Both the position numbers and the translations under genes were made by a program. From Candidatus Poribacteria bacterium (lineage in GTDB: Bacteria > Poribacteria > WGA-4E > PCPOR2b): a DNA stretch of 64,000 bases. The notes beneath the pieces are model-generated. The model was given only the letters and a program-made list of their open reading frames with translations, ran no database searches and was not told the origin of the DNA. The stretch is from NCBI GenBank assembly GCA_965215015.1, contig OZ244042.1:448001-512000 (forward strand), written 5' to 3'. Shown in pieces: positions 16,590-23,975 of the stretch (its first letter is position 1; the number at the start of each line of letters is the position of its first letter).

Positions 16590-18026
16590 ATGACAGATCT
16601 CCTCGATGATACCCAAATGCAACAATTTATCACCGACGGCTATATCACTGTCCGAGCCGACTACCCTCCCGAATTTCACCAAGACCTCTACCAACAAATT
16701 GAGGCGATGTTTGAAAGTGAGGGTAATACCGGCAACAATATTCTACCTCGCATCCCCCAAATCCAGAAAGTTTTCGATCATCCGGCGTTAAAGGGTGCCT
16801 TGACCAGTCTGCTAGGGGAAGGCTACATCATGAATCCACACCGGCACTGCCATCTCAATCCCCCTGAAAGTCAAGGGCAGCACTGGCATAAGGATTGTTA
16901 TGTGTTCGATCACAATATGCGTCATCCACGTTTTCAGTGGGTGCTTGCACTCTATTACCCTCAAGATACGACCGAAGCCATGGGACCAACAGGGCTGCTG
17001 CCCGGCAAGCAATTTTACAAAAAAGTTAGCCATGCTAACCCGCAATTGGCGAGTGAGCCTGCAGCACCCTTATGTGGCGAAGCCGGCACCGTTTCACTCG
17101 TTCACTTCGATGCGTGGCACCGAGCAATGCCGAATCGTAGTACAAAGAAGCGATACATGCTCAAGTTTCAATTTGCGCGTATGCAGTCACCTCAAGCACC
17201 TTCATGGAATCACAGGGATCGTGAGTGGAAAGGCGATGTAAACGATAAAAGTCGAGCCGCATCGGTAGATGTCTGGAACTGGCTATGTGGGAACCATTCG
17301 GCTTCGGAGTCAGATACGTCGGAGAATGGGGCACCAGCGTTGGTGGCAGCTCTGGGTGATAAATCAGAAACCGTTCGTCTGAACGCCGCTTATACGCTAG
17401 GAAAAATGGGGCAGTCTGTCGTGCCAGTGTTAATTGACGCTATGCGAAAGGAAACCCTTGCATCAATTGAGGAAACAACCGCCAAACCCCCTGACAATTT
17501 GCATGGCACCAATCCAACCGCCGGCTACGCAGCGCAAGCGTTGGCCGCGATTGGTTCACAAGCAGTTCCGGGACTAATCAAAGCATTGGACGATGAAGAT
17601 TGGTGGGTACGCGCGATGACTGTGGATGTCCTGACAAAGATTGGGCAATTTGCGGGAGATGCAGTGCCGGTATTGATAGAACGTGCGAATGATAAACACT
17701 GGTGGGTGCGCCGTAATGCGATTGAGGCATTGGGAACCATTGAATCTTGCAGCTCAGACACAACATCGCTGCTGGTCGCCGCGTTGCGGGACGAAGATTA
17801 CCGGGTTCGGCGTAACGCCGCCCTCACTTTGGCAAAGCTAGGACAACCCGCGGATGAAGCTATACCTGCGTTGGTGGAGATGTTAGATGACGAGAATCGG
17901 TACAATCGCTTTTATGCAGCAAATGCGTTGCGACGAATTGATACATCTGCCGCACGAGAGGCATTGGTAAACGCCCTTTTCACTGCCCGATGGTGTCCTA
18001 TCACCACGAGGGAAAACCAATACTAG
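16590..18026 (+). CDS. Phytanoyl-CoA dioxygenase (PhyH)-family domain fused to HEAT repeats
   Basis: N-terminal WHKD and WHRA Fe(II) ligands; C-terminal repeated 'L.D.D..VR.NAA.ALG' HEAT units. Confidence 0.85.
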   Translation: MTDLLDDTQMQQFITDGYITVRADYPPEFHQDLYQQIEAMFESEGNTGNNILPRIPQIQKVFDHPALKGALTSLLGEGYIMNPHRHCHLNPPESQGQHWHKDCYVFDHNMRHPRFQWVLALYYPQDTTEAMGPTGLLPGKQFYKKVSHANPQLASEPAAPLCGEAGTVSLVHFDAWHRAMPNRSTKKRYMLKFQFARMQSPQAPSWNHRDREWKGDVNDKSRAASVDVWNWLCGNHSASESDTSENGAPALVAALGDKSETVRLNAAYTLGKMGQSVVPVLIDAMRKETLASIEETTAKPPDNLHGTNPTAGYAAQALAAIGSQAVPGLIKALDDEDWWVRAMTVDVLTKIGQFAGDAVPVLIERANDKHWWVRRNAIEALGTIESCSSDTTSLLVAALRDEDYRVRRNAALTLAKLGQPADEAIPALVEMLDDENRYNRFYAANALRRIDTSAAREALVNALFTARWCPITTRENQY

Positions 18027-20570: not shown

Positions 20571-20757
20571 ACGTATACCTCACTTCTTCAAAAATAAAGA
20601 AACCGTCCTAATCTCCGAGGGTTGCCAATCCCACGGTGCGGGTTGTGGTATCTTCAATGTAAGTGTTGAGGACAACCTCCAGTCCCCTGGTGAGACAGGC
20701 TAACGATCGCTCGGCAAATCACTCGTCCTTCAGTGGAGACGACCATCTTTTCCTCTG

Positions 20758-22746
20758 TCAAATTTCATTTTCACTGCTCTTTCGTTGAGCAAATTCATTG
20801 CTATATTTGTACATGTACCACGATGCAATACTCCGGAATGGCTTCCATTGATTAGCAATCTCCTGCATCTCTTCAATATTATTAATAGCAATGTCATACA
20901 CCTGACTGATGGTCCTTCTAAGAGCTAGGTCCTGTATGGGAAATACATCTTGCCTGGCTAGACTAAATATCAAAAACATATTTACAGTCCAATCGCCTAT
21001 TCCTTTGACAGTTTTAAGCACGGATCGAATTTGATCCTCGGTCATAGAAGACATTTTGTCAAGATCTATATCCCCTCGTACAATCCTTTCAGACAGATCA
21101 GAAATGTATGAGTATTTACGTCGCGAAACTCCTGTTGCTAAAATCTTGTCTGGTGGTTGCTTTATGAAACGATGGGGAGTAACAGGCGATGAATTAAACA
21201 AAGACCGGAATCTATGAAATATTGTGTCTGCTGCCTGTCGAGATAACTGCTGGTTAATTATCGAACCTACTAAAAATTCAAAATGAAGCGTTTGGGACTG
21301 AAGATTGCACGGTCCAACCTTGTTTATAATTTTTCCCAAGTGCTTGTCTCGCTTATGAAGGTGATAACAAATACCACTGAAGTTAGAAGATTCATTAATC
21401 TGTTGAGTTGGTATATAAGCATTCTTAAGTAAGCCTGATGTCTGAAGCCAATCATTAACTATCTTCTGAACTTCAACCTTCTTGTTTTTTGTCGCTGAAA
21501 TGGAAAAATCGACAATTGAGTTATGAGGTGGATTACTTGCGCTTGAGGCTTTCTGAGTATCAAAAAACAGAGAGTCAAAAAGCGTTGGTTGATTGGCTGA
21601 ATCCTCCTCTTTTTTGCCCCCTTTTACATAATCACCCATGGGCTTGAGCCCGTGAGAGAAACGACCTAGGATTGTTGTAATCGCTTCAACGCTGTTATCA
21701 ATCCCTATCCAGTTTCGTTGTAGTTCATCAGCTACAGCCAGGGTCGTTCCAGATCCTGCAAAACAATCTAAAACTAAATCTCCAGGATGAGACGACGCTT
21801 GGATTATTCTTCGGAGTAAATCTGGATTCTTCTCTGTGGGGTAGCCGGTGATTTTAATGTTCTGGTTGTGTGCATCTTTGAAGTCTAGCCAAATATCCTG
21901 CACACCGGCTCCTGGATGCTGATCGAGATAAACCTTGCGACGAGGGTTCCCGTTCTTAGACCAAAAAATTTCACCACCTGCATCCATTTTATCAAGTGTT
22001 GCTGGTGGATACTGCCAGTGTTTGCCCGGTGGGGGCATCATTCCTCGCCAAGGTTTTCCCGTTTCTCCATTTCTAGTCCCTGGTGCATGAATGGGAACCT
22101 TCATGAAACGGCGACCAGTTTCAGGCTCAACATAATGATATTCTTTTGCACCGTCTTCGGATAAAGGTTCAACTGGGCGATTCCAGATGTACTTGTCAGA
22201 CTTTGTGTAAAACAAGATCAAGTCAGCAATATTACCGTATGCCTTGCGTGTATAATTTTTTGGATTACACTTCTTTCGAACAATCAAATTGCGGTAATTT
22301 GAAGAACCAAATATTTCATCCATTGTCAATTTCATCTCGAAAATCATCTTATCGTCAAGATGAAGGTAGATCGATCCTTGTGGTGATAGTAGCTCGTGTA
22401 GAAGTATTAGCCTCTCCCGGAGGAATTCGATGAAATCACTGCCTGTCAATGAGTCGGAATATGCTTTTTTTTGTTTCCTAGAAACGAAAGTACTCTGCGT
22501 TGCGAAAGGCGGATCTATGTAAATGAGTGAAACCCTACCTTTCAATTTCTTTTTTTTCAATAGATGTTGAAGTAGGAGTAGGTTGTCACCGAAATAGAGC
22601 TCATTCCTAGATGGAGCAGTATGCAGCGTGCAGACTGCGGGAGATGGCGTTTCCAAAATTGAGGATATGGGCTTCTTTTTTTCGTATTCAAGACGTACGG
22701 AAGTAGTTTTTTCGTTTTTTGACATCTTTGGGATACCTATAGCCAT
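20758..22746 (-). CDS. Beta-class N6A/N4C DNA methyltransferase fused to a C-terminal AlkA-family (HhH-GPD) DNA glycosylase
   Basis: DPPF (motif IV) before YPTEK and DCFAGSGT (motif I); last ~200 aa contain SIINQQLS, HhH LKTVKGIGDWTV, VFPIQD and WKPFRSIASWY. Confidence 0.85.
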   Translation of the reverse strand: MAIGIPKMSKNEKTTSVRLEYEKKKPISSILETPSPAVCTLHTAPSRNELYFGDNLLLLQHLLKKKKLKGRVSLIYIDPPFATQSTFVSRKQKKAYSDSLTGSDFIEFLRERLILLHELLSPQGSIYLHLDDKMIFEMKLTMDEIFGSSNYRNLIVRKKCNPKNYTRKAYGNIADLILFYTKSDKYIWNRPVEPLSEDGAKEYHYVEPETGRRFMKVPIHAPGTRNGETGKPWRGMMPPPGKHWQYPPATLDKMDAGGEIFWSKNGNPRRKVYLDQHPGAGVQDIWLDFKDAHNQNIKITGYPTEKNPDLLRRIIQASSHPGDLVLDCFAGSGTTLAVADELQRNWIGIDNSVEAITTILGRFSHGLKPMGDYVKGGKKEEDSANQPTLFDSLFFDTQKASSASNPPHNSIVDFSISATKNKKVEVQKIVNDWLQTSGLLKNAYIPTQQINESSNFSGICYHLHKRDKHLGKIINKVGPCNLQSQTLHFEFLVGSIINQQLSRQAADTIFHRFRSLFNSSPVTPHRFIKQPPDKILATGVSRRKYSYISDLSERIVRGDIDLDKMSSMTEDQIRSVLKTVKGIGDWTVNMFLIFSLARQDVFPIQDLALRRTISQVYDIAINNIEEMQEIANQWKPFRSIASWYMYKYSNEFAQRKSSENEI

Positions 22747-22755
22747 AATTCACCC

Positions 22756-23175
22756 TTACGATAATAACCAGTCAAGTGTGATTCTTTCTGTGATCATTCG
22801 TAAAGTAACAACCTTTACAAGGCCAGGCCATGAATCTTCTATGTATGCATAGTCTGTCCACATTGACCCGAGTAAAAGACCGGGACCATCATTTAAAAAA
22901 ATAACTTTAATTGCTAAACTTTGCTGGTGTGCATAGCCTAGCACTTCATTAGCACAATCTCGGTATTGACCTGCTCGATCGTCCTCTTGAGCTCCCCCAC
23001 GGTCGGAATCGTATCGAGCCAACCCGACTGCTACGGGTATTTCATTCTGATATAGAACAAAGTCTACTGGGCGATCTGGCTTGGGATAATCTTCAAATAT
23101 TTCGCCCAAGATTACATCTTTACCGGCTCGTTCAGGGCCAATAATATGCAAATCCCTCCCTCTGAAGTTTTTCAT
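22756..23175 (-). CDS. Short, probably N-terminally truncated type II restriction-endonuclease-like protein
   Basis: Ends 9 nt upstream of the MTase; PVDF...ARYDSDRGGAQEDDR...NDGPG; AT-rich like the MTase. Confidence 0.5.
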   Translation of the reverse strand: MKNFRGRDLHIIGPERAGKDVILGEIFEDYPKPDRPVDFVLYQNEIPVAVGLARYDSDRGGAQEDDRAGQYRDCANEVLGYAHQQSLAIKVIFLNDGPGLLLGSMWTDYAYIEDSWPGLVKVVTLRMITERITLDWLLS

Positions 23176-23253
23176 TGTTATATTTTGCCCCTTTTGCTAC
23201 AATCGATCTGTTTTGAGAGGATACCATAAATAGCGATCAAAGGAGGGAATCCA

Positions 23254-23547
23254 ATGGCTACTTACATCGCGTTGGGACGCTATACACAACAAGGCATAGA
23301 GAATATTAAGGAAGGACCCGCCCGCACTAGTGCTGCTAAAAAAAACATTCAAGCCTTGGGCGGAGAATTTAAGGCGTTTTATATAGTGATGGGTCAGTAC
23401 GACTTTGTCACTATCATTGAAGCCCCAGACGATGAAACCGCAGCCAAGTTCGCGCTTGCTACCGCTTCGGAGGGCAACGTCCGCATTGAGACACTGCGTG
23501 CCTTCACGGAAGATGAATACCGGGAGATTGCTGCTTCTCTGCCTTGA
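23254..23547 (+). CDS. GYD domain-containing protein
   Basis: MATYIALGRYTQQG...MGQYD...ETLRAF; RBS AAGGAGG. Confidence 0.88.
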   Translation: MATYIALGRYTQQGIENIKEGPARTSAAKKNIQALGGEFKAFYIVMGQYDFVTIIEAPDDETAAKFALATASEGNVRIETLRAFTEDEYREIAASLP

Positions 23548-23569
23548 ACCGTTTTTAGCGCGCCTACCA

Positions 23570-23975
23570 TATCGCACAAAAAATGAAACTGTATCGGATT
23601 GGTATAAACTCAAAGATGAGATAGCCAAGTTACATTATCGCATCACCTCTATCAGACGAGACACACCACAAAGCGAGTGCAGCGATTGTAAATAGTACCA
23701 AGCGAATCGGCATAGAATCTCTGAACGTAGCCGGTATGCTCAAGAATCATAAACTTGCCAAAGCATTGTCCAACGCTTCCGTGTCCTCATTTTTAGAGGT
23801 GCTCACGTATAAAGCCGAACCGATTGGCGTAAAGCTTATCGAAGTGGATACCTCTACCCCTCTAGTAATAGTAAAACTTGTTCGGCATGTGGTGGGGTAG
23901 ATAGCGACTTATCCTTGTCCGATAGGACATACCATTGCGGCACTTGCAGGCACACCTAGGACAGAGACCTCAATC
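23570..23975 (+). pseudogene. tnpB: tnpB (IS200/IS605) remnant
   Basis: IAKLHYRI, IGIESLNVAGMLKNHKLAKAL, LTYKAE, SKTCSACG, YHCGTC, DRDLN in broken frames with stops. Confidence 0.85.

Follow-up and report, generated by a model that had tools for sequence, protein, structure and literature searches.

A conserved fusion of a BstEII/EcaI-type DNA methyltransferase with a Mag-type glycosylase in Candidatus Poribacteria and other bacteria

A stretch of 64,000 nucleotides from Candidatus (Ca.) Poribacteria bacterium (assembly GCA_965215015.1, contig OZ244042.1, positions 448,001 to 512,000), referred to here as the window, carries a gene in which a DNA amino-methyltransferase (MTase) of the BstEII/EcaI restriction-modification (R-M) type is joined to a C-terminal DNA glycosylase of the helix-hairpin-helix (HhH) kind. 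The fusion is a conserved family and not an artefact. It varies the known BstEII-type R-M systems in that a repair glycosylase is fused to the MTase, and in the window the gene of the restriction endonuclease (REase) carries a deletion in addition. We consider it likely that the glycosylase tail of this R-M methylase is an active enzyme for alkylated bases, which serves as portable repair in a horizontally acquired BstEII/EcaI-type cassette. The initial annotation of the window, made from the sequence alone, knew of no characterised fusion of this kind; neither a description nor a characterisation of one was found in the literature searched.

The gene occupies positions 20758..22746 of the minus strand as a single, stop-free open reading frame (ORF) encoding 662 amino acids (Table 1). 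The Pfam family N6_N4_Mtase matched residues 72-358 (E 8.3e-48; 163.7 bits against a gathering cut-off of 26.7), and HhH-GPD matched residues 493-634 (E 5.4e-12; 46.4 bits against a gathering cut-off of 26.2). The catalytic motif IV (DPPF) precedes motif I (FAGSG), which is the order of the beta class; with the Pfam score above the gathering level, this places the front part among the beta-class amino-MTases. The best PADLOC model for the protein was MTase_II PDLC03354 (Type II methyltransferase), which covered residues 8-398 with an E value of 3.4e-140. The initial annotation had read this gene as one continuous frame with a beta-class MTase followed by an HhH-GPD glycosylase, located in an AT-rich patch, and both statements hold: the GC content is 0.38-0.44 over positions 20750-23000 and about 0.48-0.53 in the flanks.

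Table 1. Features of the methyltransferase-glycosylase gene and its surroundings. Positions are those of the window.
Feature	Residues	Position	Strand	Remarks
662-aa fusion gene		20758..22746 (stop codon included)	-	BstEII/EcaI-type beta-class DNA amino-MTase with C-terminal Mag-type HhH-GPD glycosylase
MTase part	1 to ~440	21427..22746	-	Includes a small strand-helix element at ~410-440
Motif IV, DPPF (amino-MTase catalytic motif)	78-81	22504..22515	-	Nearly invariant in 28 aligned fusions; DPP[FY] in 74/74
Motif I, FAGSG (S-adenosylmethionine-binding loop)	329-333	21748..21762	-	G331, S332 and G333 invariant in 28; [FY]xGSG in 74/74
Tether, low-confidence, between MTase part and glycosylase core	442-482	21301..21423	-	Predicted local distance difference test score (pLDDT) <50 in the AlphaFold2 model
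Mag/AlkA2-type HhH-GPD glycosylase domain	456-655	20782..21381	-	Pfam, PDB sequence and fold matches
HhH hairpin, GIGDW	582-586	20989..21003	-	Invariant in 28/28; G-I-[GS]-x-W in 74/74
Asp606 of VFPIQD, predicted catalytic aspartate	606	20929..20931	-	Invariant in 28/28 and 74/74; aligns with residue 170 of Mag1 chain 3s6i
139-aa remnant of a BstEII-like REase, C-terminal half only		22756..23175	-	Matches 9ibq residues 156-285
Deletion junction		23154..23160	.	~607 bp gone: ~140 bp of upstream DNA and ~150 N-terminal REase codons; from alignment with L001 and L002

The sequence of the tail (about residues 456-655) was compared with those of proteins of solved structure. It matched the 3-methyladenine glycosylases of Bacillus halodurans (2h56, E 9e-26) and Schizosaccharomyces pombe (Mag1, 3s6i, 3e-23), as well as Deinococcus radiodurans AlkA2 (DrAlkA2; 2yg8, 2e-22) and S. 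pombe Mag2 (4b21/4hsb, about 6e-23). Escherichia coli AlkA was a distant match (E 5e-5). The NCBIfam AlkA equivalog PRK10308 reached 31 bits, against a cut-off of 229, and covered residues 523-652 only, a score that makes the tail a member of the Mag/AlkA2 type and not AlkA proper. The AlkA-type label of the initial annotation needs correction in this respect: the domain is an HhH-GPD glycosylase, but one of the short Mag/AlkA2 type, in which the AlkA N-terminal domain is missing; no Pfam match to AlkA_N was found in the 662-amino-acid protein. The Gly-rich hairpin (G582-I-G584) and the conserved Asp about 20 residues downstream (D606) that characterize HhH-GPD proteins are both in place. The residue of Mag1 with which Asp606 aligns is one that we take to be its catalytic Asp, and the Trp of the hairpin occupies the position of the Lys nucleophile found in bifunctional HhH enzymes.

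An AlphaFold2 model built from an alignment of 28 sequences agreed with these assignments. The tail was predicted to adopt the two-lobed, all-helical glycosylase fold, and Foldseek matched it to 2h56, 3s6i, 2yg8 and 4b21 with E values of 1e-9 to 5e-8 and TM-scores, normalised to the target, of 0.63-0.70. The pLDDT of the glycosylase core was about 78-92 for residues 490-600 (means of 10-residue blocks). The front part had Type III Mod, CcrM, M.RsrI and M.MboIIA as its Foldseek neighbours. The small strand-helix element at about residues 410-440 was also modelled with confidence (pLDDT about 89 at 410-430), and the linkers on either side of it (369-406 and 442-482) were of low confidence, which fits a flexible tether. 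The tail thus resembles the enzymes 2h56, Mag1 and DrAlkA2 in sequence over about 190 residues, in fold, in the HhH hairpin, in the position of the catalytic Asp, in the QQLS motif and in having no AlkA N-terminal domain. Unlike these stand-alone proteins of about 200-230 amino acids, it forms the C-terminal third of an R-M methylase. DrAlkA2 is described as lacking the AlkA N-terminal domain and as removing 3-methyladenine, 7-methylguanine, 1-methyladenine and 3-methylcytosine (PMC5128194).

Relatives of the tail are overwhelmingly stand-alone enzymes of about 200 amino acids (9,706 representatives at E <= 0.001, 168 at E <= 1e-30). Across 50 mostly stand-alone members of the family, Q44, Q45, K89, G127, G129, W131, D151 and P181 (domain numbering) were invariant. 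Five of the 10 longer relatives scanned were fusions of Ogt (PF01035) with HhH-GPD, an indication that this glycosylase lineage has been combined repeatedly with alkylation repair. The proteins P0130, P0136, P0153, P0164, P0169 and P0103 comprise the five Ogt fusions and one protein with a weak RIO/kinase-like match (25.6 bits against a cut-off of 22) before HhH-GPD. The five Ogt fusions, as well as one AraC/Ada_Zn/AlkA_N protein, are like the window protein in that the same glycosylase lineage is joined to another domain; they differ in that their partners are alkylation-repair domains, suicide or repair methyl-acceptors, and not R-M DNA methylases dependent on S-adenosylmethionine.

The architecture was then looked for in other proteins. 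Among proteins of 364-1159 amino acids, the tail gave 28 matches, and 27 clusters of 565-674 amino acids carried both Pfam domains, with identities down to 46%. A profile of 50 diverse family members was also run against longer proteins, where the 7,999 candidates with the most shared words were scored; 86 matched at E <= 1e-10 and 82 of these combined an MTase with HhH-GPD. The initial annotation had proposed such a search, and its result is that the two domains are not always encoded by separate genes. All 83 MTase-bearing matches belonged to one MTase family, and the MTase parts of the 73 full-length ones were 58.5-95% identical to that of the window. Current database names of the fusions ('adenine-specific DNA-methyltransferase', '3-methyladenine DNA glycosylase' or 'hypothetical protein') each miss at least half of the protein. 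None of 446 matching records in the plasmid collection, and none of 237 in the phage collection, covered 80% or more of the fusion.

A survey of contigs from one genome per species, in which the best 80 related loci were kept, found the glycosylase tail in 26 loci. The other 54 had a stand-alone MTase of about 413-502 amino acids, which matched the 662-amino-acid query from residue 1 to about 374-461. Loci with the tail came from Poribacteria, Nitrospirota, Thermodesulfobacteriota, Myxococcota, Kiritimatiellota, Lentisphaerota, Planctomycetota, Pseudomonadota, Armatimonadota, Verrucomicrobiota, Chlorobiota and Ca. Entotheonella. Two of the 26 were discontinuous. L029:2591-4510, from a member of the Chlorobiaceae, is a natural split, in which the TAA stop codon of a 428-amino-acid MTase abuts the ATG of a 213-amino-acid glycosylase gene and an intact REase gene lies upstream; L038 has an in-frame TGA in the fusion and a stop codon in its REase as well. 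A Kiritimatiellae metagenome-assembled genome (G009) contains two different MTase-glycosylase cassettes, L009 and L018, with MTase parts 69% and 61% identical to that of the window, both with a full-length REase.

The signatures of both halves are conserved without exception. In the 74 full-length fusions (73 clusters and the window), DPP[FY], [FY]xGSG, QQ[LI]S, the hairpin, Asp606 and Lys544 were present in every protein, and in none of these 74 was one active site gone and the other retained. The initial annotation had noted that the HhH motif and the Asp of VFPIQD are retained in the window protein, an observation that now extends to the family. Ratios of nonsynonymous to synonymous substitution (dN/dS), calculated by the Nei-Gojobori method over seven close pairs, were 0.07-0.13 for the MTase part (0.09 for the window against L001, one of its closest relatives) and 0.06-0.37 for the glycosylase part (0.30 for the same pair). 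The stretch 399-455 was the least constrained, at 0.26-0.78. The glycosylase part is therefore under purifying selection, and both halves are apparently active as judged from their motifs.

The two domains have also diverged together, with pairwise identities correlated at r = 0.93 over 351 pairs (Mantel test, 0 of 2000). On a tree of the MTase domain (81 rows) the fused state required 15 changes, of which supported branches force no fewer than 12, and by this count the tail is a dispensable accessory. On a tree of the glycosylase domain (110 rows), 19 fusion tails and six short database proteins, the latter probably fragments or split forms, made up a well-supported clade, and the branching inside it mirrored the MTase tree. 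Most simply read, the fusion is old, its halves diverged together, and it has been lost repeatedly. The same glycosylase tree placed the tails of L029 and L020 among unrelated stand-alone glycosylases, as if recruited independently. In an approximately unbiased (AU) test, a single clade that included L029 was not rejected (p 0.52; the tree with the single clade was even better by 3.99 log-likelihood units), and we therefore make no claim of a convergent association of MTase and glycosylase.

Directly upstream of the fusion gene in the window lies the short ORF that the initial annotation had described as REase-like. It is indeed related to a REase, but it is only the C-terminal half of one: its 139 amino acids matched residues 156-285 of the 288-residue BstEII chain 9ibq (E 3.4e-43), and a full-length REase query aligned to the window at residues 139-289 only. 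The closest relatives, the Ca. Poribacteria metagenome-assembled genomes L001 and L002, have fusion proteins 88% identical to that of the window, and both keep the whole REase of 289 codons at the same place, beside the same divergent gene for a GYD-domain protein. In the window the REase was destroyed by a deletion of about 607 bp, which left an orphan methylase-glycosylase gene; the ATG of the 139-amino-acid ORF is located just upstream of the junction. The GYD gene (23254-23547, plus strand, E 4.6e-34) marks the insertion site as common to the window, L001 and L002. A 143-amino-acid ORF upstream of the REase remnant (23197..23628, minus strand) matched no Pfam family and overlaps with the oppositely oriented GYD gene; it was treated as spurious.

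Public sequencing runs agree with the assembly. The independent runs X2 and X7 matched the stretch without differences; all 2.8 kb of it were present on one contig of one run, and an identical contig (22522-23400) of a run from another study spans the deletion junction. The junction between the two domains, for which the initial annotation had called for confirmation in reads, is thus unchanged in the contig of the whole stretch and the frame is intact. Contigs of two RNA libraries, in which carry-over of DNA is possible, were 90-99% similar and reached into the regions of the MTase, the glycosylase and the REase, each in part. At 23154-23158 their free ends continue into undeleted REase sequence. 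These contigs hence come from a relative whose gene is intact, and expression in this strain cannot be read from them.

The kinship of the cassette with the BstEII system is close. Among annotated proteins, the MTase part was most similar to a 431-amino-acid 'site-specific DNA-methyltransferase' from Geobacillus stearothermophilus ATCC 12980, encoded by plasmid pBSO1, with 59.7% identity over residues 1-375. Beside its gene, the same plasmid (NZ_CP128495.1; L085:4268-5131, minus strand) encodes a 287-amino-acid 'hypothetical protein' that corresponds to the BstEII chain of 9ibq (E 3e-196) and shares 51% identity, from end to end, with the REase of L001; the PDB entries 9ibq and 9ic8 are R.BstEII. 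The systems share a REase homologous from end to end, as seen in L001, and a beta-class amino-MTase. They differ in three respects: M.BstEII has no glycosylase tail, and the prototype system hence has an unfused MTase; the pBSO1 genes are convergent, with a small helix-turn-helix gene upstream of the MTase, while REase and MTase genes of the fusion family are collinear and abutting, and no such gene was seen next to the cassette of the window; and the REase of the window is truncated. EcaI also enters the picture through a homolog from Ca. Nitrospira nitrosa, one of the matches of the tail search, whose NCBI name is 'Modification methylase EcaI (modular protein)' and which points to the same kind of system. 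Of the features of the BstEII/EcaI type, the window has the homologous MTase and lacks the full-length REase, which is present in 18 of the 25 assessable fusion loci.

EcaI and BstEII recognise GGTNACC, and M.EcaI makes N6-methyladenine. In the literature searched we found no paper on the structure of BstEII or on EcaI with GGTNACC. By homology, the fused MTase is predicted to recognise GGTNACC and to methylate adenine at N6. This sequence occurs 890 times in the genome of the window, where a fifth-order Markov model leads one to expect 1108.6 (ratio 0.80), which makes it the second most depleted of the 64 NNN-N-NNN palindromes, a modest footprint of restriction pressure. The most depleted palindrome was CCTNAGG (424 observed, 680.1 expected, ratio 0.62), a hint that the lineage is subject to a further restriction specificity.

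The repair genes of the hosts were compared next. The genome of the window is one contig, 98% complete, with MutY, two EndoIII-like genes and OGG; no Tag, AAG, AlkB or second Mag-type gene was found in it. In the survey, a separate Mag/AlkA-type gene (E <= 1e-8) was present in 3 of 26 fusion genomes and in 19 of 54 stand-alone-MTase genomes (Fisher p 0.033). The corresponding numbers for AlkB (PF13532) were 3/26 and 14/54 (p 0.24). Either gene was found in 5/26 and 32/54 (Fisher p 0.0008, a count that ignores relatedness, as do the other two; size-adjusted likelihood-ratio p 0.012). One of the 19 Mag-type genomes owes its place to a weak match in the unpublished genome G067, and by subtraction the last fraction becomes 31/53 without it. 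We regard this association of the fusion with hosts that lack AlkB and Mag as suggestive only, a trend.

When 23 of the 24 separate Mag-type genes (21 genomes; G067 left out) were compared with the MTase matches (150 of 356 for PF01555 and all listed for PF00145), two were located within 6 kb of an MTase among the matches listed. One of them (L053:4210-4917, minus strand) is 2.8 kb from an EcaI-type cassette with an unfused MTase, with a GH57/DUF3536 gene between them, and the other (L022:2-628, plus strand) is 5.4 kb from an EcaI-type cassette with a fused MTase, separated from it by FolD and acyl-ligase genes. The genes in between are housekeeping genes, and among the matches compared no separate Mag-type gene lay within 6 kb of the MTase of another R-M system. 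Two of 24 separate Mag genes so near to an EcaI-type cassette seems more than chance.

The explanation that we favor combines these observations as follows. A Type II R-M cassette of the BstEII/EcaI kind, with the REase gene followed by the MTase gene on one strand, would have been acquired horizontally. In one lineage of the MTase family, a monofunctional HhH-GPD glycosylase of the Mag/AlkA2 type, about 200 residues long, is joined to the C-terminus by a flexible tether. The tail would flip out and excise N-methylated bases such as 3-methyladenine and 7-methylguanine, and possibly 1-methyladenine and 3-methylcytosine as DrAlkA2 does, and the abasic site left behind would be passed to the base excision repair of the host. 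The cassette may in this way bring its own repair of methyl damage into hosts that mostly have neither AlkB nor other Mag-type enzymes. Several findings weigh against this explanation. The mean pLDDT of the full-length model, 62.6, is moderate. The fusion is confined to one MTase family, when a general need for repair next to methylases predicts others as well, and a historical accident would account for this confinement no less well than a general cost of methylation. In 12 phylogenetically independent pairs on the MTase tree, the association with host repair genes went, on average, the expected way in 4.1, the opposite way in 1.1 and was tied in 6.8 (median sign-test p 0.375), and is thus not significant once relatedness is taken into account; the median size of fusion genomes is also lower, at 3.45 Mb against 5.35 Mb, and most genomes are metagenome-assembled and of unknown completeness. 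The GGTNACC specificity rests on identities of 51% (REase) and about 60% (MTase) to the BstEII system. Convergent association cannot be enlisted in its favor, for the tree hinted at separate recruitments (L029, L020) but the AU test did not reject one clade. Finally, S. pombe Mag2 (4b21, E 7e-23), an equally close relative of the tail, keeps the Asp at the aligned position, and yet its PDB titles speak of a glycosylase homolog or a glycosylase-like protein sculpting DNA at abasic sites; intact motifs are consequently no proof of catalysis.

Mag2 is also what commends a non-catalytic role, in which the tail would be a Mag2-like domain that binds DNA or abasic sites and helps the MTase to find or hold DNA, or senses damage. 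Mag2 is not known to have glycosylase activity, its structures (4b21, 4hsb) are as near to the tail in sequence and fold as are the active enzymes, and their titles refer to abasic or damaged DNA. Nevertheless, Asp606, QQ[LI]S, the hairpin and K544 persist in 74/74 fusions over deep divergence and the same positions are invariant in the 50 mostly stand-alone members, the pattern expected of a working active site, and stand-alone MTases, including M.BstEII, manage without any tail. We think this role unlikely. We would give somewhat less credence to the idea that the fusion gene of the window is a decaying relic, no longer useful or expressed, in a cassette en route to loss after its REase. It is true that the REase is truncated, that the deleted DNA of about 140 bp upstream may have held the promoter, that the glycosylase part has changed more quickly than the MTase part inside the Poribacteria clade (identities to L001 of 81% and 93%, in line with the dN/dS of this pair), and that the RNA-library contigs covering the gene derive from a relative and not from this strain. 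However, the frame of 662 codons and all motifs are intact, dN/dS is well below 1, the identical deleted allele was found in runs of at least two further studies, and orphan MTases commonly persist after the loss of their REase.

The remaining alternative is that the tail is an effector of defence that excises modified or unmethylated bases of invading DNA at or near GGTNACC, adding to or replacing the REase, much as the initial annotation had suggested when it proposed that base excision supplements or replaces the endonuclease. The fusion does sit in an R-M cassette, and in the window the REase is dead and the fusion intact. Domains of the HhH superfamily do have uses in defence: in END nucleases, hypermodified phage DNA is sensed by an EndoIII-like domain that has been inactivated, and the paper that describes them cites a report of antiviral defence by DNA glycosylases (PMC12191111). 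The state of the REase across loci tells otherwise. A full-length, stop-free REase was found directly upstream of the fused MTase in 18 of 25 assessable loci, both close Poribacteria genomes among them; in the others, six REases were broken and one locus had none, while one contig, outside the 25, ended inside the MTase. Beside unfused MTases it was found in 39 of 53 assessable loci, one of which (L068) is from a genome flagged as unpublished. With REases intact equally often in both groups, base excision is not replacing cleavage, and the short ORF of the window comes from a deletion in its lineage, which runs counter to the suggestion of the initial annotation. Furthermore, the tail falls among ordinary repair glycosylases and repair proteins fused to Ogt, the MTase half would shield the same DNA that it binds, PADLOC yielded only MTase models for the protein, and the flanks are metabolic (aminotransferase, short-chain dehydrogenase/reductase, GYD, 3-hydroxyacyl-CoA dehydrogenase and HpcH-type aldolase genes) with no defence island. 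The restriction glycosylases of the R.PabI family and Brig1 share with the tail the base excision in a defence context, but neither was among its sequence or fold matches; the tail is an ordinary HhH-GPD domain of repair type, it is located on the modification protein and not on the REase, and a classical REase lies alongside it in relatives. PabI has a different fold. A defence effector is the reading that we find most improbable.

Returning to the tail as portable repair, the selective reason for the fusion can be conceived in two ways. The tail could be a proof-reader acting in cis: the MTase would sometimes methylate a ring nitrogen (N1/N3) of the adenine that it has flipped out beside S-adenosylmethionine, or an off-target base, and the tethered glycosylase would remove the lesion. 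We put this forward tentatively, as a possibility with less than even chances. Such a self-cleaning MTase is compatible with the usual absence of AlkB and Mag-type enzymes from fusion genomes and with the substrates of DrAlkA2. Alternatively, the tail could be general repair cargo that benefits repair-poor hosts and so stabilises the cassette. The persistent physical fusion and the strict co-retention of both active sites favor the clearing of lesions made by the MTase itself, and the restriction to a single MTase family favors general cargo or a historical accident.

R-M methylases are usually regarded as harmless to the host. A conserved fusion under selection suggests that the MTase makes lesions that need clearance, or that mobile R-M cassettes carry repair cargo that aids their persistence. 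The association of Vsr with 5-methylcytosine methylases is a known case of such logic. In both systems the methylase, be it part of an R-M system or an orphan, is accompanied on its travels by an activity that repairs damage related to methylation; Vsr, however, is an endonuclease for the T:G mismatches that arise from deamination of 5-methylcytosine and is encoded by a separate gene, while here an amino-MTase is fused to a glycosylase for alkylated bases. A further parallel is the archaeal mismatch glycosylase Mig.Mth, linked to M.MthTI, although the literature searched did not confirm it. Expression of M.SssI in E. coli is reported to raise mutations at AT in cells without AlkB, work on a C5-methylase that supports methyltransferases as a cause of alkylation-type DNA damage in bacteria (bioRxiv 10.64898/2026.01.24.701492). 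If the proof-reader reading is true, the fusion would be the first bacterial sign of an alkylation-damage cost of R-M amino-methyltransferases, a counterpart of the eukaryotic link between DNA methyltransferases (DNMTs) and ALKB2, and it would account for the retention of the tail chiefly in hosts that have no AlkB or Mag, and for its loss from others. We know of no comparable report on amino-methyltransferases. The fusion family, with its natural fused, split (L029) and tail-less variants, is a compact bacterial system for the question of damage by adenine methylases.

Elsewhere in the window, positions 16590-18026 of the plus strand encode a 478-amino-acid protein with a PhyH-type dioxygenase domain (residues 41-188) and C-terminal HEAT repeats.

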